A DNA stretch of 64,000 nucleotides from Phycisphaerales bacterium JB037 (GCA_043101605.1 JBICIG010000060.1:5203-69202); one strand, 5' to 3'. Counted from the stretch's first letter, positions 37,737-64,000 are shown. Numbers and translations: made by a program. Notes: generated from the letters alone by a model not told the origin.

Positions 37737-37821
37737 TGCGGGTGACAGGACTCGAACCTGCACGGCCTATTCGGCCACGAGGACCTAAACCTCGCGCGTC
37801 TGCCAATTCCGCCACACCCGC
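37737..37821 (-). tRNA. tRNA-Leu (anticodon UAG), class II
   Basis: Manual fold of GCGGGTG-TG-GCGGAATTGGCAGACGC-G-CGAGG-TTTAGGT-CCTCG-TGGCCGAATAGGCCGT-GCAGG-TTCGAGT-CCTGT-CACCCGC-A. No CCA is encoded. Confidence 0.9.
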
Positions 37822-57246: not shown

Positions 57247-57672
57247 TCAGGCGGCCCGCTCGTCCCAGCGATCGGGGCGGACATTCGACGGGGCGTTGGG
57301 GGGTTCGCGCCAGTCCTCGGCGTTTGGGAGCGTGATCTCCGACGCCACGGTCTTGCGGTAGCCCAGCAGCCGCACCACCTCGAGCACATCCGACCAGGTC
57401 GGGAAGCTCTTGTGGTTGGCTTTCTTGAAGGCGTCGATCGCCATGAGGAACAGGAACTGCTCCTTGCTCAGTTCGCCTTCCTCGGCCGACTTGGTGAAGT
57501 CGCTGAGGCGACGCCCCGGGCCGCGGCGGCGATCGAGGTCGCCGGTCCACGACTCGTCGGCGTCATCCCGCCGCTGCTGCCGCGCGATCTCGCGCCGGTC
57601 GAGCCCGAGCCGGCGATCGACGGTCTGGCGCGGCGCATCGCCCGAAGCGGGGGGGCCGTGGCGGTTGGTCAT
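57247..57672 (-). CDS. hypothetical protein (basic N-terminus, conserved-looking C-terminus)
   Basis: 141-aa ORF. ..KEQFLFLMAIDAFKKANHKSFPTWSDVLEVVRLLGYRK.. No family recognised. Confidence 0.5.
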   Translation of the reverse strand: MTNRHGPPASGDAPRQTVDRRLGLDRREIARQQRRDDADESWTGDLDRRRGPGRRLSDFTKSAEEGELSKEQFLFLMAIDAFKKANHKSFPTWSDVLEVVRLLGYRKTVASEITLPNAEDWREPPNAPSNVRPDRWDERAA

Positions 57673-57721
57673 GACGATCTCCGTGCGAACGGCCCCGCGG
57701 GATCAGCCCCCGCGCGGGCGC

Positions 57722-57967
57722 TCAGAGATCGTCATCGTCCTCTTCTTCGTCGTCTTCGAGGGAATCCTCCTCGAAGTCGTCCTCGAACTCGTCGAAGGTC
57801 TGCTCTTCCCCGTCGTCATCGTCATCGAAGTAATCGTCTTCGTAGTCCTCGTCATCCTCATCATCGGCGCAGACCGCGCCGCCCGACCCTCCCGGGACGG
57901 ACCAATCCTCGAGCAGCACCGGGAACGCCAGCACGCGCTCCGGATCGAGAAGGGTGGACCAGCTCAT
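57722..57967 (-). CDS. hyper-acidic small protein (81 aa)
   Basis: Met37 of ORF 57722..58075. MSWSTLLDPERVLAFPVLLEDW.. is followed by about 50 residues that are almost entirely D/E. Confidence 0.5.
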   Translation of the reverse strand: MSWSTLLDPERVLAFPVLLEDWSVPGGSGGAVCADDEDDEDYEDDYFDDDDDGEEQTFDEFEDDFEEDSLEDDEEEDDDDL

Positions 57968-58152
57968 CGCGCTTCCCTCGTGCCGGACACGCCGTCCGGC
58001 CGGTGACTCATCAGACCCCCAGGCGGAGCCCCCGCCTGATGCGCGGTACACTACGGACTCGGGCGGCAAAGTCAACGCCCGGATCGACCACTCTGCGGCG
58101 CCCCGCGCGGGCGATCAGGGGTCCTTCCCCCCGCCCTCCGGAAAACCGCCCC

Positions 58153-58740
58153 GTGACCGCCGCCCCCCGACAGGACGAATCACCCGGGCTCGACCCCCTC
58201 GCCGGCTTCCTCGCCCTCGTCCTGCCCGGGCTCGGGCACGCCTTCCGCGGGCAGGTCCTCCGCGGCGTCCTCATCGGCGCCGGGATCCTCGGGCTCTTTG
58301 CCGGCGGGATCCTCATCGGGGGCATCACCGTCGTCGACAGCCGCTCCGATCGCACCGAGACCCGCATCTCCTTCATCGGGCAGGCGTTCGTCGGCCCCGT
58401 CGCCTTCGCGGTCAACACCGTCCACCAGTCGAGCTTCAAGGGCCTCGACCCGCTGACCAACACACGCCGCCACGCCCTGCCCGACGAGCGCATCGAGAAC
58501 GGCCGCATCCGCCCGATGAGCCTCGGCGCCGCCGACGGCGACCCGCCCGTCCATGTCTCCATCGGCAAGATGCACGAGATCGGCGTCCTCTATTGCCTCG
58601 TCGCGGGCATGCTCAACTTCATCGCCTTCCTCGATGCGCTCCGCCCGCCGGCCAAGTCGCGCGATGACGATGAACCGGTGCGCACCACGGGCGTCGTCGC
58701 CGGGATGCTCAGCGGGCAGAGCGCCGGGGGGACCGCGTGA
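58153..58740 (+). CDS. hypothetical membrane protein
   Basis: GTG at 58153 inside ORF 56857..58740. Contains LAGFLALVLPGLGHAFRGQVLRGVLIGAGILGLFAGGILIGG. Confidence 0.55.
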   Translation: MTAAPRQDESPGLDPLAGFLALVLPGLGHAFRGQVLRGVLIGAGILGLFAGGILIGGITVVDSRSDRTETRISFIGQAFVGPVAFAVNTVHQSSFKGLDPLTNTRRHALPDERIENGRIRPMSLGAADGDPPVHVSIGKMHEIGVLYCLVAGMLNFIAFLDALRPPAKSRDDDEPVRTTGVVAGMLSGQSAGGTA

Positions 58741-58997
58741 TGCACCTGTCGGCGGCGCTGGCAACCCCCTTCATCGACCCGCTCGAAGCCCACCGCCTGT
58801 GGTGGGTCTTCCTCGTCCCGCTGGCGCTGCTGATCTCGCTGGCGTACAAGGCCGTCCGCCAGCCCACGCTCGACCACATCGTGCGCGATGTGGCGCTGAT
58901 GACCGCCCAGGTTCTCATCGGCATGGTCGCCCTCGGTGCCGCGCTGTTCCTGTTCATCGAGTGGATCGTCCCCGCCCTCGTCACCCCGGGGACCTGA
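58737..58997 (+). CDS. small membrane protein (86 aa)
   Basis: The start overlaps the previous stop (GTGATG). Two TM helices are present. Confidence 0.5.
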   Translation: MMHLSAALATPFIDPLEAHRLWWVFLVPLALLISLAYKAVRQPTLDHIVRDVALMTAQVLIGMVALGAALFLFIEWIVPALVTPGT

Positions 58998-59099: not shown

Positions 59100-60659
59100 T
59101 CACGCATACCGCGACACCCGCGTCCGGATCGGGCGGTCCAGGTTCTGCACCAGGTACCGCAGCGCATCGCACGCGTGGTCCGAGCCATCCTTGATAGGCG
59201 TCATCGATTCCTTGTCGTCGGCCGGGTAGTGGTACCGCTCGATCGCCTCGATCAGCCCCGCGCACCGTTCGTGAACGAACAGCCGGGGCCCCTCCACCGC
59301 CGGGCGCAGCCGCGACCGCACCAGCCCGATGCCCTCGTCCAGCCGGAGCACGCGGTCGCGCACCTTCAGCCCCGCGCGGCGCATCTGCTCGATGTTGCTC
59401 AGGCCCGTCTGCTCGCTCCGCTGCCGACCCGCCGGATCGACCCCGACCCACGAGACCGGTCGCGCCCGCAGCGCCTCGATCGACCGCTCGAGCAGTTCGC
59501 CGGTGCGGATCATCTCGTCGGTCACCCACAGCACCCCCTCGGCATCGAGGGTGGCCCACAGCACGACCGTCGGCGAGCGGTACCCGAAGTCCATCCCCGC
59601 CACGCGCAGGTCATCCTCGCGCGCCGCCGGCTCGCGCGACACCACATGCCGACGCGCCTCGAACTCCGGGTAGACCGCGTCGGATCGACTCGGGCGGAGC
59701 GAGAGCATCTCGGCGTTCCAGGTCGCCTCGCCGACGCGTCCCTTCAGGTCCATCGCGTCGCGGACGGTGATGTGCCCGGCCCCCTGTCCGGTTGCATCTC
59801 GCTCCTTGGCCCGCCCGCCGCATTCGGGCAGCAGCGGGCAGTCTCCGCCCGCCCCGGAGCACTCGTGCGAATCGTCGCACGCCCCGAGCACATCGACGAC
59901 GCCCCACTTGAACAGCCGACGCCTCCCGGCCGACGCCTCGCGCACGATGCGGAACATCAGCCCGTGCGGGCGGTGCATGGTGCTCAGGCACTCGATGGTC
60001 CCGCGGACGAACACCCCGCCGCACTGCTTGGAGCGTGTGACGAGTTGAGCCGCCTCCCACACCTCGGGGTCGAAGAGTTCGACCTCGTCGCAGCGCAGGC
60101 GCTGGACGCGCGTGCCGCGCACGCTCGTTTCAGATTGCGCCAGCACCTCGCACGCCGACCCGTTCGCGAGCGCCACGCGCCGCTGAGTGATCCGCCCCTC
60201 GACCATGTCGCAGAACGGCTCGCGCGCAAACAACCCCGCCAGGTGCGCGTGCATCCGCCGCGACTGCTCGAGCGAGCCGCCCAGGATCCGCACCGCGATG
60301 CCCGGCTTGAAAACCAGGTCCAGCAGCGTCGCGACCGCGCCGAGAAAGGTCTTCCCCCCGCCCCGATTCGCCCACACCACGCTGTCGCGCGGGGCGCCCG
60401 CGGCATCCGAGTTCGGTCGCCACGAGCCATCGCCCGCTTTATCACCCCCAAACTCGCCGCCGCCCGGCTCCTTCCACTCCTCCTCGAAGAACGCGTGGCA
60501 GAGGTAATCAAAGGGCGAGGCGTGCCCGGCGATCAGCGCCCGCGTCGGCACCTCCAGCTCCAGATGCTCGGCCAGCCACGCGTGCAGCTCGCCCGGCGTG
60601 CGCGGGCGCGCGAGCCCGAACGAGCCCTCGCCTGCCTTCTCCGCGTCCGCCCCGCTCAC
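59100..60659 (-). CDS. terL: phage terminase large subunit-like protein, apparently intact
   Basis: GTG start in a GTGA overlap with the upstream gene. Walker A VWANRGGGKTF, Walker B RLRCDEVE, and RNaseH-like nuclease motifs AGMDFGY, VGVDPAG and DGSDHACDALRY. A Cys-rich insert reads CDDSHECSGAGGDCPLLPEC. Confidence 0.85.
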   Translation of the reverse strand: MSGADAEKAGEGSFGLARPRTPGELHAWLAEHLELEVPTRALIAGHASPFDYLCHAFFEEEWKEPGGGEFGGDKAGDGSWRPNSDAAGAPRDSVVWANRGGGKTFLGAVATLLDLVFKPGIAVRILGGSLEQSRRMHAHLAGLFAREPFCDMVEGRITQRRVALANGSACEVLAQSETSVRGTRVQRLRCDEVELFDPEVWEAAQLVTRSKQCGGVFVRGTIECLSTMHRPHGLMFRIVREASAGRRRLFKWGVVDVLGACDDSHECSGAGGDCPLLPECGGRAKERDATGQGAGHITVRDAMDLKGRVGEATWNAEMLSLRPSRSDAVYPEFEARRHVVSREPAAREDDLRVAGMDFGYRSPTVVLWATLDAEGVLWVTDEMIRTGELLERSIEALRARPVSWVGVDPAGRQRSEQTGLSNIEQMRRAGLKVRDRVLRLDEGIGLVRSRLRPAVEGPRLFVHERCAGLIEAIERYHYPADDKESMTPIKDGSDHACDALRYLVQNLDRPIRTRVSRYA

Positions 60660-60895
60660 GCGCCGCCCTCCCGGTCCGACGAGCCGCGGGATCCGCCGCC
60701 GCCCCGCCGATCGGTCGGCTCCTCGACCACGCCGAGCGCGAGCAGCAGCGCCCGCTCGCGCGGCTCGTCGAATGCGTCGAGCTTCTTGAGCACCCGTCGA
60801 CGCTCGCCCGCTGACAGAAAGAATGTCAACGGATACGGCAGCGCCGACTCGCGCGCCTCCCGCGGCACGGGCACACCACCCCGATCATCACTCAT
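60656..60895 (-). CDS. small ribbon-helix-helix-like protein (79 aa)
   Basis: Only the last 79 codons of ORF 60656..61444 are accepted (ATG at 60895, GGGGGAG upstream). YPLTFFLSAGERRRVLKKLDAFDEPRERALLLALGV has a beta-alpha-alpha pattern. Confidence 0.5.
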   Translation of the reverse strand: MSDDRGGVPVPREARESALPYPLTFFLSAGERRRVLKKLDAFDEPRERALLLALGVVEEPTDRRGGGGSRGSSDREGGA

Positions 60896-60957
60896 CCCAC
60901 TCCCCCCTCGATCAATCCTCTGGGTCGATCGGGCCACGCGACGCCGCCGCCCAATCC

Positions 60958-61638
60958 TCACCCCGCACTGTGCGCGTAGGCGACGGGCCGGGCGACCAGC
61001 GCCCCCGCCGCCCGCTGCGCGATCGCGCGTCGGCTCAACCCCGCTCGTCCCCGTGTCGCGCGCGACCGCCGGGCCCACCGCGCCAGTTCGCGTGCCAGGA
61101 ACGCGTCCCGCCACGCCCGCGCCGCCATCCGAGGCTCCATCAGCCGCCACGCCTCGACGCCGCGTCGTACGAGCGCATCGCCCAGGCGCGCGTCGTGCTC
61201 GCTCCACCCGAGCCGGTACGCGGTCATCCCGGCGCGCTCGAAGAACGGGCAGAACGCGCCCATCGACGCGACCGCCTCGGTCGCGGGCGTCAGCGGGTCT
61301 GCGAGGTAGTGCTCGACCAACCGACGCGCCACGCCCAGCCCTCGCCAGCGCGGCTCGACGATCACCCGAGACAGACACCGCACCTCCCGATTCAGCCGAC
61401 GCGCGGCGCGACGCGTGTCCCCCGAGCGATACCGCCCGGGCCATGCCAGTTCACGCCACGACCCGTTGAGCGTCGGATAGCTCGCCACCAGCACCCCAAC
61501 GAGTTCGCCCGCCTGTCCACGCGAGCCGTGCTCGCGTGCCCGCCACACGCCGGCGATCGTCGCCGGGCGTCCGCTCCGGTAGTGAAACCCGAGCAGCGCA
61601 TCGAGGTCGCGAGCCGAGCCCCGTTCGATCACGATCAT
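60958..61638 (-). CDS. GNAT-family acetyltransferase-like protein
   Basis: ATG at 61638 in an ATGA overlap with the ATPase gene. GNAT motif A reads RVIVEPRWRGLGVARRLVEHYL. Motif B-like sequence reads ASMGAFCPFFERAGM. Confidence 0.7.
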   Translation of the reverse strand: MIVIERGSARDLDALLGFHYRSGRPATIAGVWRAREHGSRGQAGELVGVLVASYPTLNGSWRELAWPGRYRSGDTRRAARRLNREVRCLSRVIVEPRWRGLGVARRLVEHYLADPLTPATEAVASMGAFCPFFERAGMTAYRLGWSEHDARLGDALVRRGVEAWRLMEPRMAARAWRDAFLARELARWARRSRATRGRAGLSRRAIAQRAAGALVARPVAYAHSAG

Positions 61639-62336
61639 GCGCGAGGCTCCCGCGTGCCGACGCATCGTTCGAGACGCACTCCGCCGCGGAGATCGACCCA
61701 TGCGCACACCTGCGGCGACAGCGCTCCGGACAGTTCCTCGCGGTTCGTCGCCGCGACCAGCCGCACGCGTCCGCGTCGCGCCCACCGGGACAGGCTCGCG
61801 CACACGCCGAGTGCTGTGACGCGATCGAGCGACGAGCCGAGTTCGTCGATCACGAGCACGGCGGTCCGGGATCGCATGCGTTCGACCATCGCCATCGCCC
61901 GCGCCAGCCGCAATCGTTGCCGCTGACCCTCGGAAAGTTCCGCGGGAGTCCGCGCCAGCAGCCCCGCCTCGCTCAACCCCGCCGCCGCGAGGATCCCGAG
62001 CACCTGCTCGGCAGAGCCCGGCACCTGATCGATCACGCGCACGCCGCGCCGCAATTCGGGCGGGCGCACGATCCTCCTCCCTTGCGCGGCGTGCTGCGCC
62101 GCGAGCGATGCGAGCAGGGTGCTCTTGCCCGCGCCGCTCGGGCCGAGGATGAGCACACGCTCTGCACCCGCCAACCCGCCGAGCAGCGCTCGGGCAAAGC
62201 GTGGCGGCGTGTGCGCCGCCGCCAACTCCTCCGGTGCCAGCCCGAAGATCGCGCACGCGCGGAGCAGGTTCTCCGAACGCCGCGTGCCCGGGGCTCGGTT
62301 CGCCGGCGAACGCGGCGTGTCGGTTCCCCCCACCAT
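61635..62336 (-). CDS. soluble ABC-type ATPase (no permease partner)
   Basis: Walker A GPSGAGKST, Q-loop IDQVPG, signature LSEGQRQRLRLARA and Walker B VLVIDELGSSLD. The H-loop position reads ATN. Confidence 0.8.
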   Translation of the reverse strand: MVGGTDTPRSPANRAPGTRRSENLLRACAIFGLAPEELAAAHTPPRFARALLGGLAGAERVLILGPSGAGKSTLLASLAAQHAAQGRRIVRPPELRRGVRVIDQVPGSAEQVLGILAAAGLSEAGLLARTPAELSEGQRQRLRLARAMAMVERMRSRTAVLVIDELGSSLDRVTALGVCASLSRWARRGRVRLVAATNREELSGALSPQVCAWVDLRGGVRLERCVGTREPRA

Positions 62337-62339
62337 CGC

Positions 62340-62849
62340 TCACGCCCGAGCCGCGTCGGCCCATCGGCCACGCTTCTCGAGGGGTAGGACGGCGCCCCGG
62401 GTCGACGCCCCGGCCTCTGCCTCGTGCTGGGCGTCGATCGCCTGGACATGTCGGCGGACGGTGTGCAGCGTCACGCCCAGTTCCTCGGCCGCCTGCCGCA
62501 TCGAGCGCCCGCACAGCACGCACGACTCGGCGACGAGCCGACGCGTCCGCGTCCACGAACTCCGCGCCAGCACCACGAAGCGGAAGCGATCGGACATCAC
62601 CCGCGTCACGACGCGGCGGAGCCGGGTGCGGACGATCCGCGGCGTCGTGCCCGCCAATGCCGCCACTTCGCGGGCGCTCCGCCCGTCGCGGTAAACCGCC
62701 TCGATGAGCGCCCGATCATCGGGAGGGAGCCACGACGCGCGATCGAGGATGGCCTCGGCCAGGTCGCGTCGACGCCGACGCCTCAGGTCCGCTGCCTGAT
62801 CCGGATCGATCCCGCCTCGCCCTGTCCCGCTCAGGCTTCGCTGACTCAT
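62340..62849 (-). CDS. regulator with two sigma-70 region-4 / LuxR-type HTH units
   Basis: ATG at 62849 follows AGGAGGAAACAGGA. HTH units are RSAREVAALAGTTPRIVRTRLRRV and RSMRQAAEELGVTLHTVRRHVQAI. Confidence 0.7.
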   Translation of the reverse strand: MSQRSLSGTGRGGIDPDQAADLRRRRRRDLAEAILDRASWLPPDDRALIEAVYRDGRSAREVAALAGTTPRIVRTRLRRVVTRVMSDRFRFVVLARSSWTRTRRLVAESCVLCGRSMRQAAEELGVTLHTVRRHVQAIDAQHEAEAGASTRGAVLPLEKRGRWADAARA

Positions 62850-62921
62850 TCCTGTTTCCTCCTGTTTCGGTTGGACTCAGAGCTGTGTTCACCGTAAAGC
62901 GGAAGTGTGTACCTATTGAAA

Positions 62922-62939
62922 ACGGCCCTGGTGGGCCGT
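62922..62939 (-). terminator. rho-independent terminator (minus strand)
   Basis: On the minus strand ACGGCCC-acca-GGGCCGT is followed by TTTTC. It lies about 50 nt after the stop at 62987. Confidence 0.6.
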
Positions 62940-62986
62940 GATCGCGGGTCCTCGGTTGTTGCGCATGCAGCCGGAGGGACGGTCAG

Positions 62987-63175
62987 CTACTTCTTCTGCT
63001 CAGCATGACCTTCGCCCTCTGGGTCTTCATCTTCATCGTCCGGCTCCCAGCCCTCCGGCGGCTTGCCCGCGCCGAGCAGGTCGCTCGCCAGGTCCTCCCA
63101 GTCCTTGTCGGACTGGACGGTCTCGGGCTTGGGCCCGGATGGCCGACTCGATTCTTTGTTCTGAGCGTCTTCCAT
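62987..63175 (-). CDS. small acidic hypothetical protein (62 aa)
   Basis: Track ORF with GC3-rich codons and its own terminator. The sequence looks disordered, so this call is uncertain. Confidence 0.4.
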   Translation of the reverse strand: MEDAQNKESSRPSGPKPETVQSDKDWEDLASDLLGAGKPPEGWEPDDEDEDPEGEGHAEQKK

Positions 63176-63429
63176 AATTCACGCCCCTTGGCATTCGCAT
63201 GTGGACGGGTGTAACAAAAGCAAGAACACCTGTCGGTTGCCAGAATTCGGTGCAGGTTAGGCGCATTCTGCGTCGGACGGGTATACTCGTCGATGGCGAC
63301 CCGAGTGGTGGTATAGCCCAGCGGATGGATTCATCATCTGGCCCGAACGCATGAGGCGTTCGCGGGAACTGTTTACGGAGGAACTTCGCCGCACCGACGA
63401 GGCGGCTCGCGCTCAACTCACAACGCGCA

Positions 63430-63464
63430 GTCAAAAGCATCGAGCGCCAACTCGATGCTTTGAC
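63430..63464. other. strong hairpin (14-bp stem with one bulged A) in non-coding DNA
   Basis: GTCA(A)AAGCATCGAG-cgccaa-CTCGATGCTTTGAC. Confidence 0.6.
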
Positions 63465-63608
63465 CTAATCATCTGACCCCAGTCTCCCCACCAGGAGTAT
63501 CGCGATGGAAAACCATCGGGGGGTATCTGCTTGGCCCATGCTAATCAGAGGCCCACCAAAAGTCAACGACAGCAACTGTTCCACACACATTCCCTGACCC
63601 AAAGGGAG

Positions 63609-63632
63609 GGCCCCGGGCTGATGCCCGGGGCC
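63609..63632. other. perfect 10-bp GC hairpin 6 nt upstream of the anomalous tRNA
   Basis: GGCCCCGGGC-tgat-GCCCGGGGCC. Confidence 0.6.
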
Positions 63633-63638
63633 TCGGAT

Positions 63639-63738
63639 GCGGCTGTGGCGGAAATCGGTAGACGCGCCGGGTTTGGGGCCCGGTGGGGCAGGTGTTTCAG
63701 CCAGACGCCCCGTGCAGGTTCGATCCCTGTCAGCCGCA
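63639..63738 (+). tRNA. anomalous class-II tRNA: Leu-type body, anticodon UGG (Pro), about 30-nt variable arm
   Basis: Manual fold of GCGGCTG-TG-GCGGAAATCGGTAGACGC-G-CCGGG-TTTGGGG-CCCGG-TGGGGCAGGTGTTTCAGCCAGACGCCCCGT-GCAGG-TTCGATC-CCTGT-CAGCCGC-A. The D and T arms nearly match tRNA-Leu at 37737..37821. Stem differences are compensated. Confidence 0.6.
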
Positions 63739-63780
63739 TCGTTGAAGACACGACTCAGTCTCTTTCAGAGGTTTCAAGCC

Positions 63781-64000
63781 ATGAGTATCTATTTGTTTAC
63801 CCGTGAGAACATCCAGCGATTCGCACCCAATGCCAAGGGGGTCTATTCGCTCCAGGATGACTTCGACATCACCTATATCGGAAGCAGCCAGGTCAGCGTC
63901 CGCGACCGGTTGCTGTCTCACTTCAACGGCTACGAAGGCCGCTGCACCCAGCAGGCCAAGTACTTCTCCGCGGAGACCTGCAGCAATCCGCTCCAGCGGG
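63781..64000 (+). CDS. GIY-YIG nuclease-domain protein, partial (runs off the right window edge)
   Basis: ATG at 63781 reads MSIYLFTRENIQRFAPNAKGVYSLQDDFDITYIGSSQVSVRDRLLSHFNGYEG... The GVY...YIG...R..L..H spacing matches the GIY-YIG N-terminal motifs. Confidence 0.7.
   Translation, partial: MSIYLFTRENIQRFAPNAKGVYSLQDDFDITYIGSSQVSVRDRLLSHFNGYEGRCTQQAKYFSAETCSNPLQR

Follow-up and report, generated by a model that had tools for sequence, protein, structure and literature searches.

A five-gene cassette ending in a terminase gene

The front half of a tailed-phage packaging module, cut before the portal gene, appears to have become fixed in the Phycisphaerae chromosome and to have been kept functional. 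This is the best reading of a five-gene cassette found in a 64,000 nt stretch (the window) of a contig with 70 % G+C from Phycisphaerales bacterium JB037. The cassette encodes a helix–turn–helix (HTH) protein, an ATP-binding cassette (ABC) ATPase, a GCN5-related N-acetyltransferase (GNAT), a small basic protein and a terminase large subunit (TerL). The same neighbourhood recurs across the clade without nearby capsid genes, which indicates that a phage fragment has been retained under selection. An earlier annotation of the window, made from the DNA alone (the original prediction), had offered three explanations: its domesticated packaging enzyme and its new cassette both live on in the present reading, whereas its decayed prophage or satellite does not. 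No description of the cassette was found in the literature searched, which covered Phycisphaerae terminases, orphan or domesticated terminases and COG2401/MK0520.

The five genes lie on the minus strand between 62849 and 59100, and all of their ORFs are intact. The first (62849–62340) encodes an HTH protein of 169 aa with two units of the sigma-70 region-4 type, and has a strong ribosome-binding site (AGGAGG) 8 nt 5′ of its ATG. Only 3 nt (GCG) separate its stop codon from the ATG of the second gene (62336–61635), which encodes a soluble ABC nucleotide-binding domain and shares an ATGA overlap with the gene for a GNAT-fold acyltransferase of 226 aa (61638–60958). After a gap of 62 nt, the gene for the 79 aa basic protein (60895–60656) is joined by a GTGA overlap to the gene for a full-length TerL (60659–59100). 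A large hairpin 3′ of the TerL stop codon (about 59090–59016, minus strand) consists of a 14 bp perfect stem around an inner stem (dG −47.7, z −2.15 by strand folding); it lacks a T-run and therefore does not qualify as a canonical intrinsic terminator. The immediate downstream neighbours, convergent with the operon, encode a small hydrophobic protein and a membrane protein of the DUF6677 family. The chained genes, the ribosome-binding site, the hairpin and the convergent membrane-protein neighbours had all been described in the original prediction and agree with what was found here. Its treatment of the five genes as one unit is likewise supported by their joint conservation across related loci.

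Conservation and selection in Phycisphaerae

A genome scan returned 33 loci, which together with three further loci (L114, L119 and L120) gave a set of 36. All 33 were labelled as Phycisphaerae or Planctomycetota, save one metagenome-assembled genome (MAG) titled Cyanobacteria (L008). The order HTH–ABC–GNAT–(small protein)–TerL was found in 33/33 loci wherever the sequence extends, as well as in the three further loci, and it recurs without portal or capsid neighbours. Embedding of the homologous loci in complete prophage modules, named beforehand as the sign of simple decay, was not observed: structural genes were absent within 10 kb. Clustering of ORFs identified shared flanking genes (UbiA, a MarR-like regulator, a MerR-like membrane protein, DUF6677, a small membrane protein, a 141 aa protein and a ferredoxin), and none of the families conserved around the cassette in the relatives was phage-like. 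In a complete 3.3 Mb genome the cassette lies near nusG–secE–rpmG–tuf, and it is also present in a MAG named Tepidisphaera.

All five genes are under purifying selection. The ratio of non-synonymous to synonymous substitution rates (dN/dS), computed in closely related pairs, was 0.12–0.20 for TerL, 0.10–0.13 for the HTH protein, 0.21–0.35 for the ABC ATPase and the GNAT, and 0.29–0.54 for the small protein. Between the window and its 88.6 %-identical relative L119 the values were 0.10–0.36. TerL and a flanking host gene diverged in step (Mantel r 0.56, 0/2000 permutations). Vertical inheritance of phage-derived genes within a clade under purifying selection, a property of gene transfer agents (GTAs), is found here.

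These data bear on the explanation that the cassette does nothing for its host, being either what is left of a decaying prophage or a satellite that is mobile at present. The genes are phage-derived, the truncation of the module falls exactly before the portal gene, and JB037 has a tRNA-like gene and a stretch of low GC 0.8 kb upstream. However, dN/dS is well below 1 in all five genes, the JB037 lineage included, all ORFs are intact and the catalytic residues are invariant. Dozens of species share the same neighbourhood, in which no integrase family and no repeats were found, and the upstream tRNA region is specific to JB037, where it stands in place of a repressor gene. Decay or current mobility is thus largely refuted and very improbable. 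The absence of portal, capsid, tail, integrase and lysis genes near TerL, as claimed at the outset, holds: no phage structural, integrase or lysis family was detected among the other large ORFs of the window, which include genes for a fucosidase, cysteinyl- and methionyl-tRNA synthetases (CysRS and MetRS), a menaquinone biosynthesis protein, glycosyltransferases, succinyl-CoA ligase, an M60 peptidase and an HDOD regulator.

A separate observation concerns a three-gene block (57247–58997 in the window, and in relatives) that encodes the 141 aa protein, which has no family, the DUF6677 membrane protein and an 86 aa membrane protein. In at least 15 genomes this block accompanies the cassette, on differing sides, which may reflect a functional link or simply the common ancestry of the neighbourhood.

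The terminase large subunit

Profile searches matched TerL to phrog_2 (2e-21) and to solved TerL structures in the PDB (2.6e-15 for 5oe8, with further matches to 4dkw, 2wbn and the T4 gp17 ATPase), and its C-terminal domain to Terminase_6C (1.3e-4). The protein has an N-terminal ATPase of the additional strand, catalytic glutamate (ASCE) type and a C-terminal RNase H-like nuclease with an acidic triad. Residue conservation was assessed in an alignment of 19 sequences with identity down to 33 %. Walker A residues R99, G101, K103 and T104, Walker B residues D191 and E192, coupling-motif residues S226/T227 and nuclease residues D357, D408, H495 and D498 were all invariant, with no catalytic residue substituted, which upholds the earlier view that the motifs of TerL are intact. 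Also invariant were all four cysteines of a Cys cluster (C261, C267, C274 and C280). The four-Cys insert had been noted before as unusual; its presence stands, but it is an invariant feature of the family that also occurs in a phage relative. Adjacency to genes for a small terminase subunit (TerS) and a portal was not found, and no portal or capsid family was present in the window or the 36 related loci.

Identity of TerL across Phycisphaerales was 47–65 %. About 2,000 relatives were present in the protein collection, and the best 120 of these (54–65 % identical) came from Phycisphaerales MAGs, some on contigs longer than 3 Mb. In four loci the match to TerL spanned about 2.2 kb instead of 1.5 kb (L033 1659–3953, L060 1801–4060, L086 6108–7974 and L099 10001–12256), which suggests an insertion inside the gene, such as an intein, an intron or a homing endonuclease.

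Viral contigs contained more distant relatives. About 40 IMG/VR contigs (L038–L079 and L110) encode a TerL relative with 35–40 % identity, in which the match is restricted to residues 20–340, comprising the ATPase and the Cys cluster; in L041 the nuclease part seems to occupy another frame. The gene order in these contigs is amidoligase-like, ParB-like, HTH protein and TerL relative, with a conserved gene of 470 aa further on. This downstream gene was considered as a portal and rejected, as it encodes an ATPase (phrog_8638), and these contigs therefore give no link to a capsid. A further IMG/VR contig (L037) encodes a TerL of 47 % identity and a GNAT of 38 % identity; its TerL gene is frameshifted and its neighbours are uninformative.

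The ABC–GNAT pair and its phage counterparts

The ABC ATPase is a minimal nucleotide-binding domain with Walker A (GPSGAGKS), signature (LSEGQ) and Walker B (VIDE) motifs, and it matched ABC_tran (1e-11), phrog_293 (2e-22) and phrog_11143 (1e-11). The GNAT was weakly matched in Pfam (1e-3) and more clearly to phrog_886 (1e-10). Its AlphaFold2 model (predicted local distance difference test score, pLDDT, of 94) shows a GNAT core that helices extend at the C terminus; motif A, which forms the acetyl-CoA loop (R-x-x-G-x-G/A), is conserved. Foldseek matches to this model were GNATs, including TmcA, NAT10 and phage Mom. In 15 of 28 Phycisphaerales loci the ABC and GNAT domains are fused in a single ORF, and fusion in about half of the genomes indicates that the two form one functional pair. 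The organization known from phage ABC/GNAT pairs, in which an ABC domain is followed, adjacent or fused, by a GNAT with the motif HxY...P-x-[WF]-[RQ]-G-x-G, is present in the cassette.

The original prediction had regarded an ABC ATPase coupled to a GNAT as foreign to packaging modules. This is contradicted by homologous genes upstream of the terminase gene in several unrelated groups of phages. In Rhizobium phage RHEph10 the order is ParB, ParB/methylase, ABC (gp081), GNAT-like (gp078), a 78 aa protein, a DNA-binding protein, TerL and portal, and the left part of this order is the same in SSU5-like phages. By blastp, the window ABC protein was 35 % identical to RHEph10 gp081 and SSU5_127 (E 2e-28) and the window GNAT was 26–29 % identical to SSU5_129 and RHEph10 gp078 (E 1e-12); for TerL, identity to the window protein was 24 % (E 1e-11). 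Gordonia phage NHagos carries ParB, a 399 aa ABC–GNAT fusion, gp3, terminase and portal genes, and Arthrobacter phage EastWest has a 372 aa ABC–GNAT fusion. The NHagos gp3 gene (L116 1826–2473), between the fusion and the terminase, is an unexpected neighbour, matching phrog_9240 ('phosphoribosylglycinamide formyltransferase', 2e-36). IMG/VR contig 3300010346_000524 (L073) encodes, in order, ParB/methylase, ABC, acetyltransferase, TerS, TerL, portal and MuF-like proteins. Its ABC protein corresponds to the N-terminal half of phrog_11143 (5e-53) and its acetyltransferase to the C-terminal half, and its TerL, which belongs to the same family as the window TerL and is 28 % identical to it over 543 aa (E 2e-51), contains a Cys cluster.

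A tblastn search of phages with the window ABC protein gave no match, probably owing to low-complexity masking, and a phage ortholog was used as the query in its place. Homologs were found in 41 of 50,697 phage records, among them phage pT24. This rarity indicates that the ABC and GNAT genes are not common accessory genes of packaging modules either, the opposite case that had been held to count against the original prediction. An ABC-ATPase-coupled GNAT, with Tenacibaculum phage pT24 as the example, has been predicted to acylate a DNA base (Iyer et al. 2013, as summarised in PMC7824862), and acyl transfer to a DNA base is taken here as that published prediction for the pair.

The small protein

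The 79 aa protein is present in at least 14 relatives, with a conserved core of about 35 residues (LTFFL-x3-ER-x2-VL-x2-L...R-x2-ALL-x-ALG). It had been described as ribbon–helix–helix (RHH)-like, and its layout, in which an extended segment precedes helices at 29–40 and 45–54, fits that description. The AlphaFold2 model was poor (pLDDT 58) because the homolog search gave two matches, and no RHH or antitoxin family was matched in searches of Pfam and PDB profiles, so that the protein is at most a candidate RHH protein. The sole PDB profile match (E 2e-4) was to ribosomal protein S15, in the helical hairpin at its C terminus. The matching hairpin of the small protein lies at window positions 60728–60820 (residues ~26–56), with the S15 counterpart GQRRRLLRYLQREDPERYRALIEKLGI, and the likeness is probably convergence in a basic hairpin that binds nucleic acid.

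The presence of a GNAT fold beside a small protein of possible RHH topology had also raised a resemblance to type II GNAT/RHH toxin–antitoxin pairs (AtaT/TacT/KacT-like), which would lie beside the ATPase and terminase genes by chance. AtaT and KacT do occur in the Foldseek list of the GNAT, far down. However, in the 15 relatives counted above the GNAT and the ABC ATPase are read as a single ORF, and the GNAT has 226 aa with a helical extension and belongs to a phage family (phrog_886/11143). A small RHH gene directly upstream of, and coupled to, a GNAT gene of ~170 aa was not found in the window; the small gene instead lies 3′ of the GNAT gene, after 62 nt, and is coupled to TerL. With no antitoxin family matched and a locus that is fixed rather than patchy, the resemblance was not borne out, and a toxin–antitoxin pair is the least probable of the explanations weighed here.

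The HTH protein, repressor and operator

The HTH protein matched Pfam Sigma70_r4_2 (1.1e-11) in two stretches, and the protein is conserved in 28 related loci. It was considered as a TerS, an assignment that was dropped because its similarity to the protein preceding TerL in viral relatives is at the level of the HTH only (hhalign 81 %). The protein may be a transcription activator or a DNA-recognition subunit.

Of the 33 loci, 22 carry a divergent gene directly upstream of the HTH gene, as do L114, L119 and L120; it encodes a protein of ~290 aa with HTH_XRE and Peptidase_S24 domains. This protein has an Ala-Gly site (VAAGYP), a serine in GDSM and a lysine in FKR, as in the self-cleaving repressors LexA and CI. 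A strict palindromic operator, GTTC-N10-GAAC, was present in 17 copies in 555 kb of related loci, and 15 of the 17 were located 45–149 bp upstream of the HTH gene.

The window contains 1.15 kb of sequence upstream of the operon. Homology to L119 extends from the TerL stop codon, where it stops on the downstream side, to position 62899, where it ends 50 bp upstream of the HTH gene ATG and inside the operator. Of the operator (62887–62904, minus strand), the right half-site GTGAAC alone is intact. JB037 has lost the adjacent repressor gene and half of the operator by rearrangement, and control of the cassette there must therefore differ.

The rearranged segment (62899–64000) begins at this breakpoint, and upstream of it G+C falls to 0.60. 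In place of the repressor gene of the relatives it contains a 62 aa acidic ORF (62987–63175, minus strand) and an odd tRNA of 100 nt (63639–63738, plus strand; Rfam 47.6 bits). The tRNA was missed by ARAGORN at default settings and called as tRNA-Pro(UGG) at a relaxed threshold only. In the acceptor, D and T arms and in A73 it differs little from the window tRNA-Leu(UAG) (37737–37821), but its anticodon loop is UU-UGG-GG and its variable arm has 27 nt versus 14 in tRNA-Leu(UAG). It may be a Leu-type tRNA with a switched anticodon or a pseudo-tRNA.

Possible functions of the cassette

The proposed history is that an ancestor of Phycisphaerae captured the front half of a packaging module, which selection would have retained since. 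DNA damage, through activated RecA, would lead the repressor to cleave itself and so switch the operon on. The HTH protein, the small protein or both may then guide the machinery to DNA or turn on other genes; TerL would cut and translocate DNA, and the ABC–GNAT pair, following the earlier prediction, would acylate a DNA base or a partner protein.

Two readings of the final step were weighed. In the first, TerL is still a terminase that fills putative capsids, which either a phage would supply or, as in a split GTA-like system, the genome would encode elsewhere. A working terminase would require the motor to be complete, with its coupling motif, and translationally coupled to a small upstream protein, as it is here; a capsid-filling TerL also fits the intactness of this motor and a conservation across the clade that is typical of GTAs. 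We regard this as a serious possibility that falls somewhat short of an even chance. In the second, TerL has been exapted as an ATP-driven nuclease or translocase that acts without a capsid in conflict or repair, alongside an ABC–GNAT acyltransferase for DNA bases. The logic would be modification plus nuclease, as in restriction–modification or Mom–REase fusions, with the CI-type repressor sensing DNA damage or infection.

In favour of the capsid-independent machine are the absence of structural genes near the cassette in 36 loci and the retention of the ABC–GNAT pair and TerL together over a long divergence. An ABC ATPase combined with a nuclease is, moreover, a common defence design (OLD, Gabija and PARIS). 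A role in DNA modification is predicted for ABC-coupled GNATs, and endonucleases are frequent partners of Mom-type GNATs (PMC7824862). However, PADLOC-DB 2.0 gave no match for the GNAT, the small protein or TerL and no system match, and the matches of the ABC ATPase (mad3/mad8 at 1e-12) reflect the core common to ABC proteins. A patchy distribution and mobility are usual for defence systems, whereas the cassette occupies the same fixed locus throughout an order. If the modification enzyme were induced along with its nuclease, self DNA would have no prior protection, and a pure nuclease effector would have no need of an intact packaging motor. A machine of this general kind is possible at a lower probability, and we lean slightly towards the terminase that fills capsids. 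The more specific version, in which a capsid-free terminase is the nuclease/translocase arm, and the ABC-coupled GNAT the DNA-base-acylating arm, of a damage-inducible conflict or repair machine, is slightly less probable still.

Several observations weigh against a functional packaging fragment under damage control. No portal, capsid, protease or tail gene was found in 59 kb of the window or within 10 kb in any relative, whereas known GTAs cluster TerL with portal, protease, capsid and tail genes (none within 10–59 kb of the cassette). No canonical TerS was recognised in the cassette, and the HTH protein consists of two HTH units with no obvious oligomerisation domain. In the window no repressor gene adjoins the cassette and the operator is reduced to the GTGAAC half-site; induction by DNA damage is something we infer from the type of repressor only. 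The rank correlation between the divergence of TerL and that of the flank was also weak (Spearman 0.19).

If the capsid reading is true, the cassette could reveal a new lineage of split GTAs in a phylum, Planctomycetota, in which gene transfer has barely been studied. If the capsid-free reading is true, a packaging motor would be reusable outside a capsid, and a modification-plus-nuclease system would have been built wholly from phage packaging parts and become fixed in a bacterial class. The uncharacterised ABC–GNAT module of phages gains a tractable, conserved bacterial model and a firm tie to terminase genes.

Comparison with known systems

The closest likeness is to phage packaging regions. 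SSU5/RHEph10-like siphophages, NHagos and L073 have ABC, GNAT, small protein and TerL genes in the same order and orientation as the cassette; ABC–GNAT fusions occur both in phages and in Phycisphaerae cassettes, and the Cys cluster of TerL is common to the cassette and L073. In contrast to these regions, the cassette stops after TerL: portal, MuF and capsid genes are missing, as are a ParB-like gene and a recognisable TerS. Its first gene encodes a tandem sigma-r4 HTH protein. It also resides in the chromosome, is passed on vertically and has an S24 repressor as its partner. The predicted DNA acylators among ABC-coupled GNATs resemble the cassette in that ABC and GNAT are adjacent or fused. 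Mom of phage Mu, which was among the Foldseek matches of the GNAT, was no more similar to it than other GNATs.

GTAs of the RcGTA type share with the cassette phage-derived genes that are fixed in a clade under purifying selection, a lack of integrase and replication genes, and a terminase with a short upstream partner. Sigma-like HTH regulators (GafA-type) and links to the SOS response are known in GTAs. AtaT–AtaR, TacT–TacA and KacT–KacA also place a GNAT fold beside a small, possibly DNA-binding protein, but differ from the cassette in gene order, size, ABC fusion, family and fixed locus.

R/F-type pyocins (PrtR/PrtN) are a domesticated phage piece under a CI-type HTH–S24 repressor that responds to activated RecA, followed by a positive regulator. 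They resemble the relatives of the cassette as a phage piece kept by the host and held off by an HTH–S24 repressor, and by analogy the HTH protein would be a putative activator at the PrtN-like step. Pyocins keep tail genes without a terminase, whereas the cassette keeps genes of the terminase side without a tail. To our knowledge, the phage parts domesticated so far are tails (tailocins and contractile injection systems), whole head–tail sets (GTAs) and, in satellites, small terminase subunits. For a large terminase to be retained on its own, along with an ABC–GNAT pair, over the lifetime of a bacterial order or class would matter beside these under either reading.

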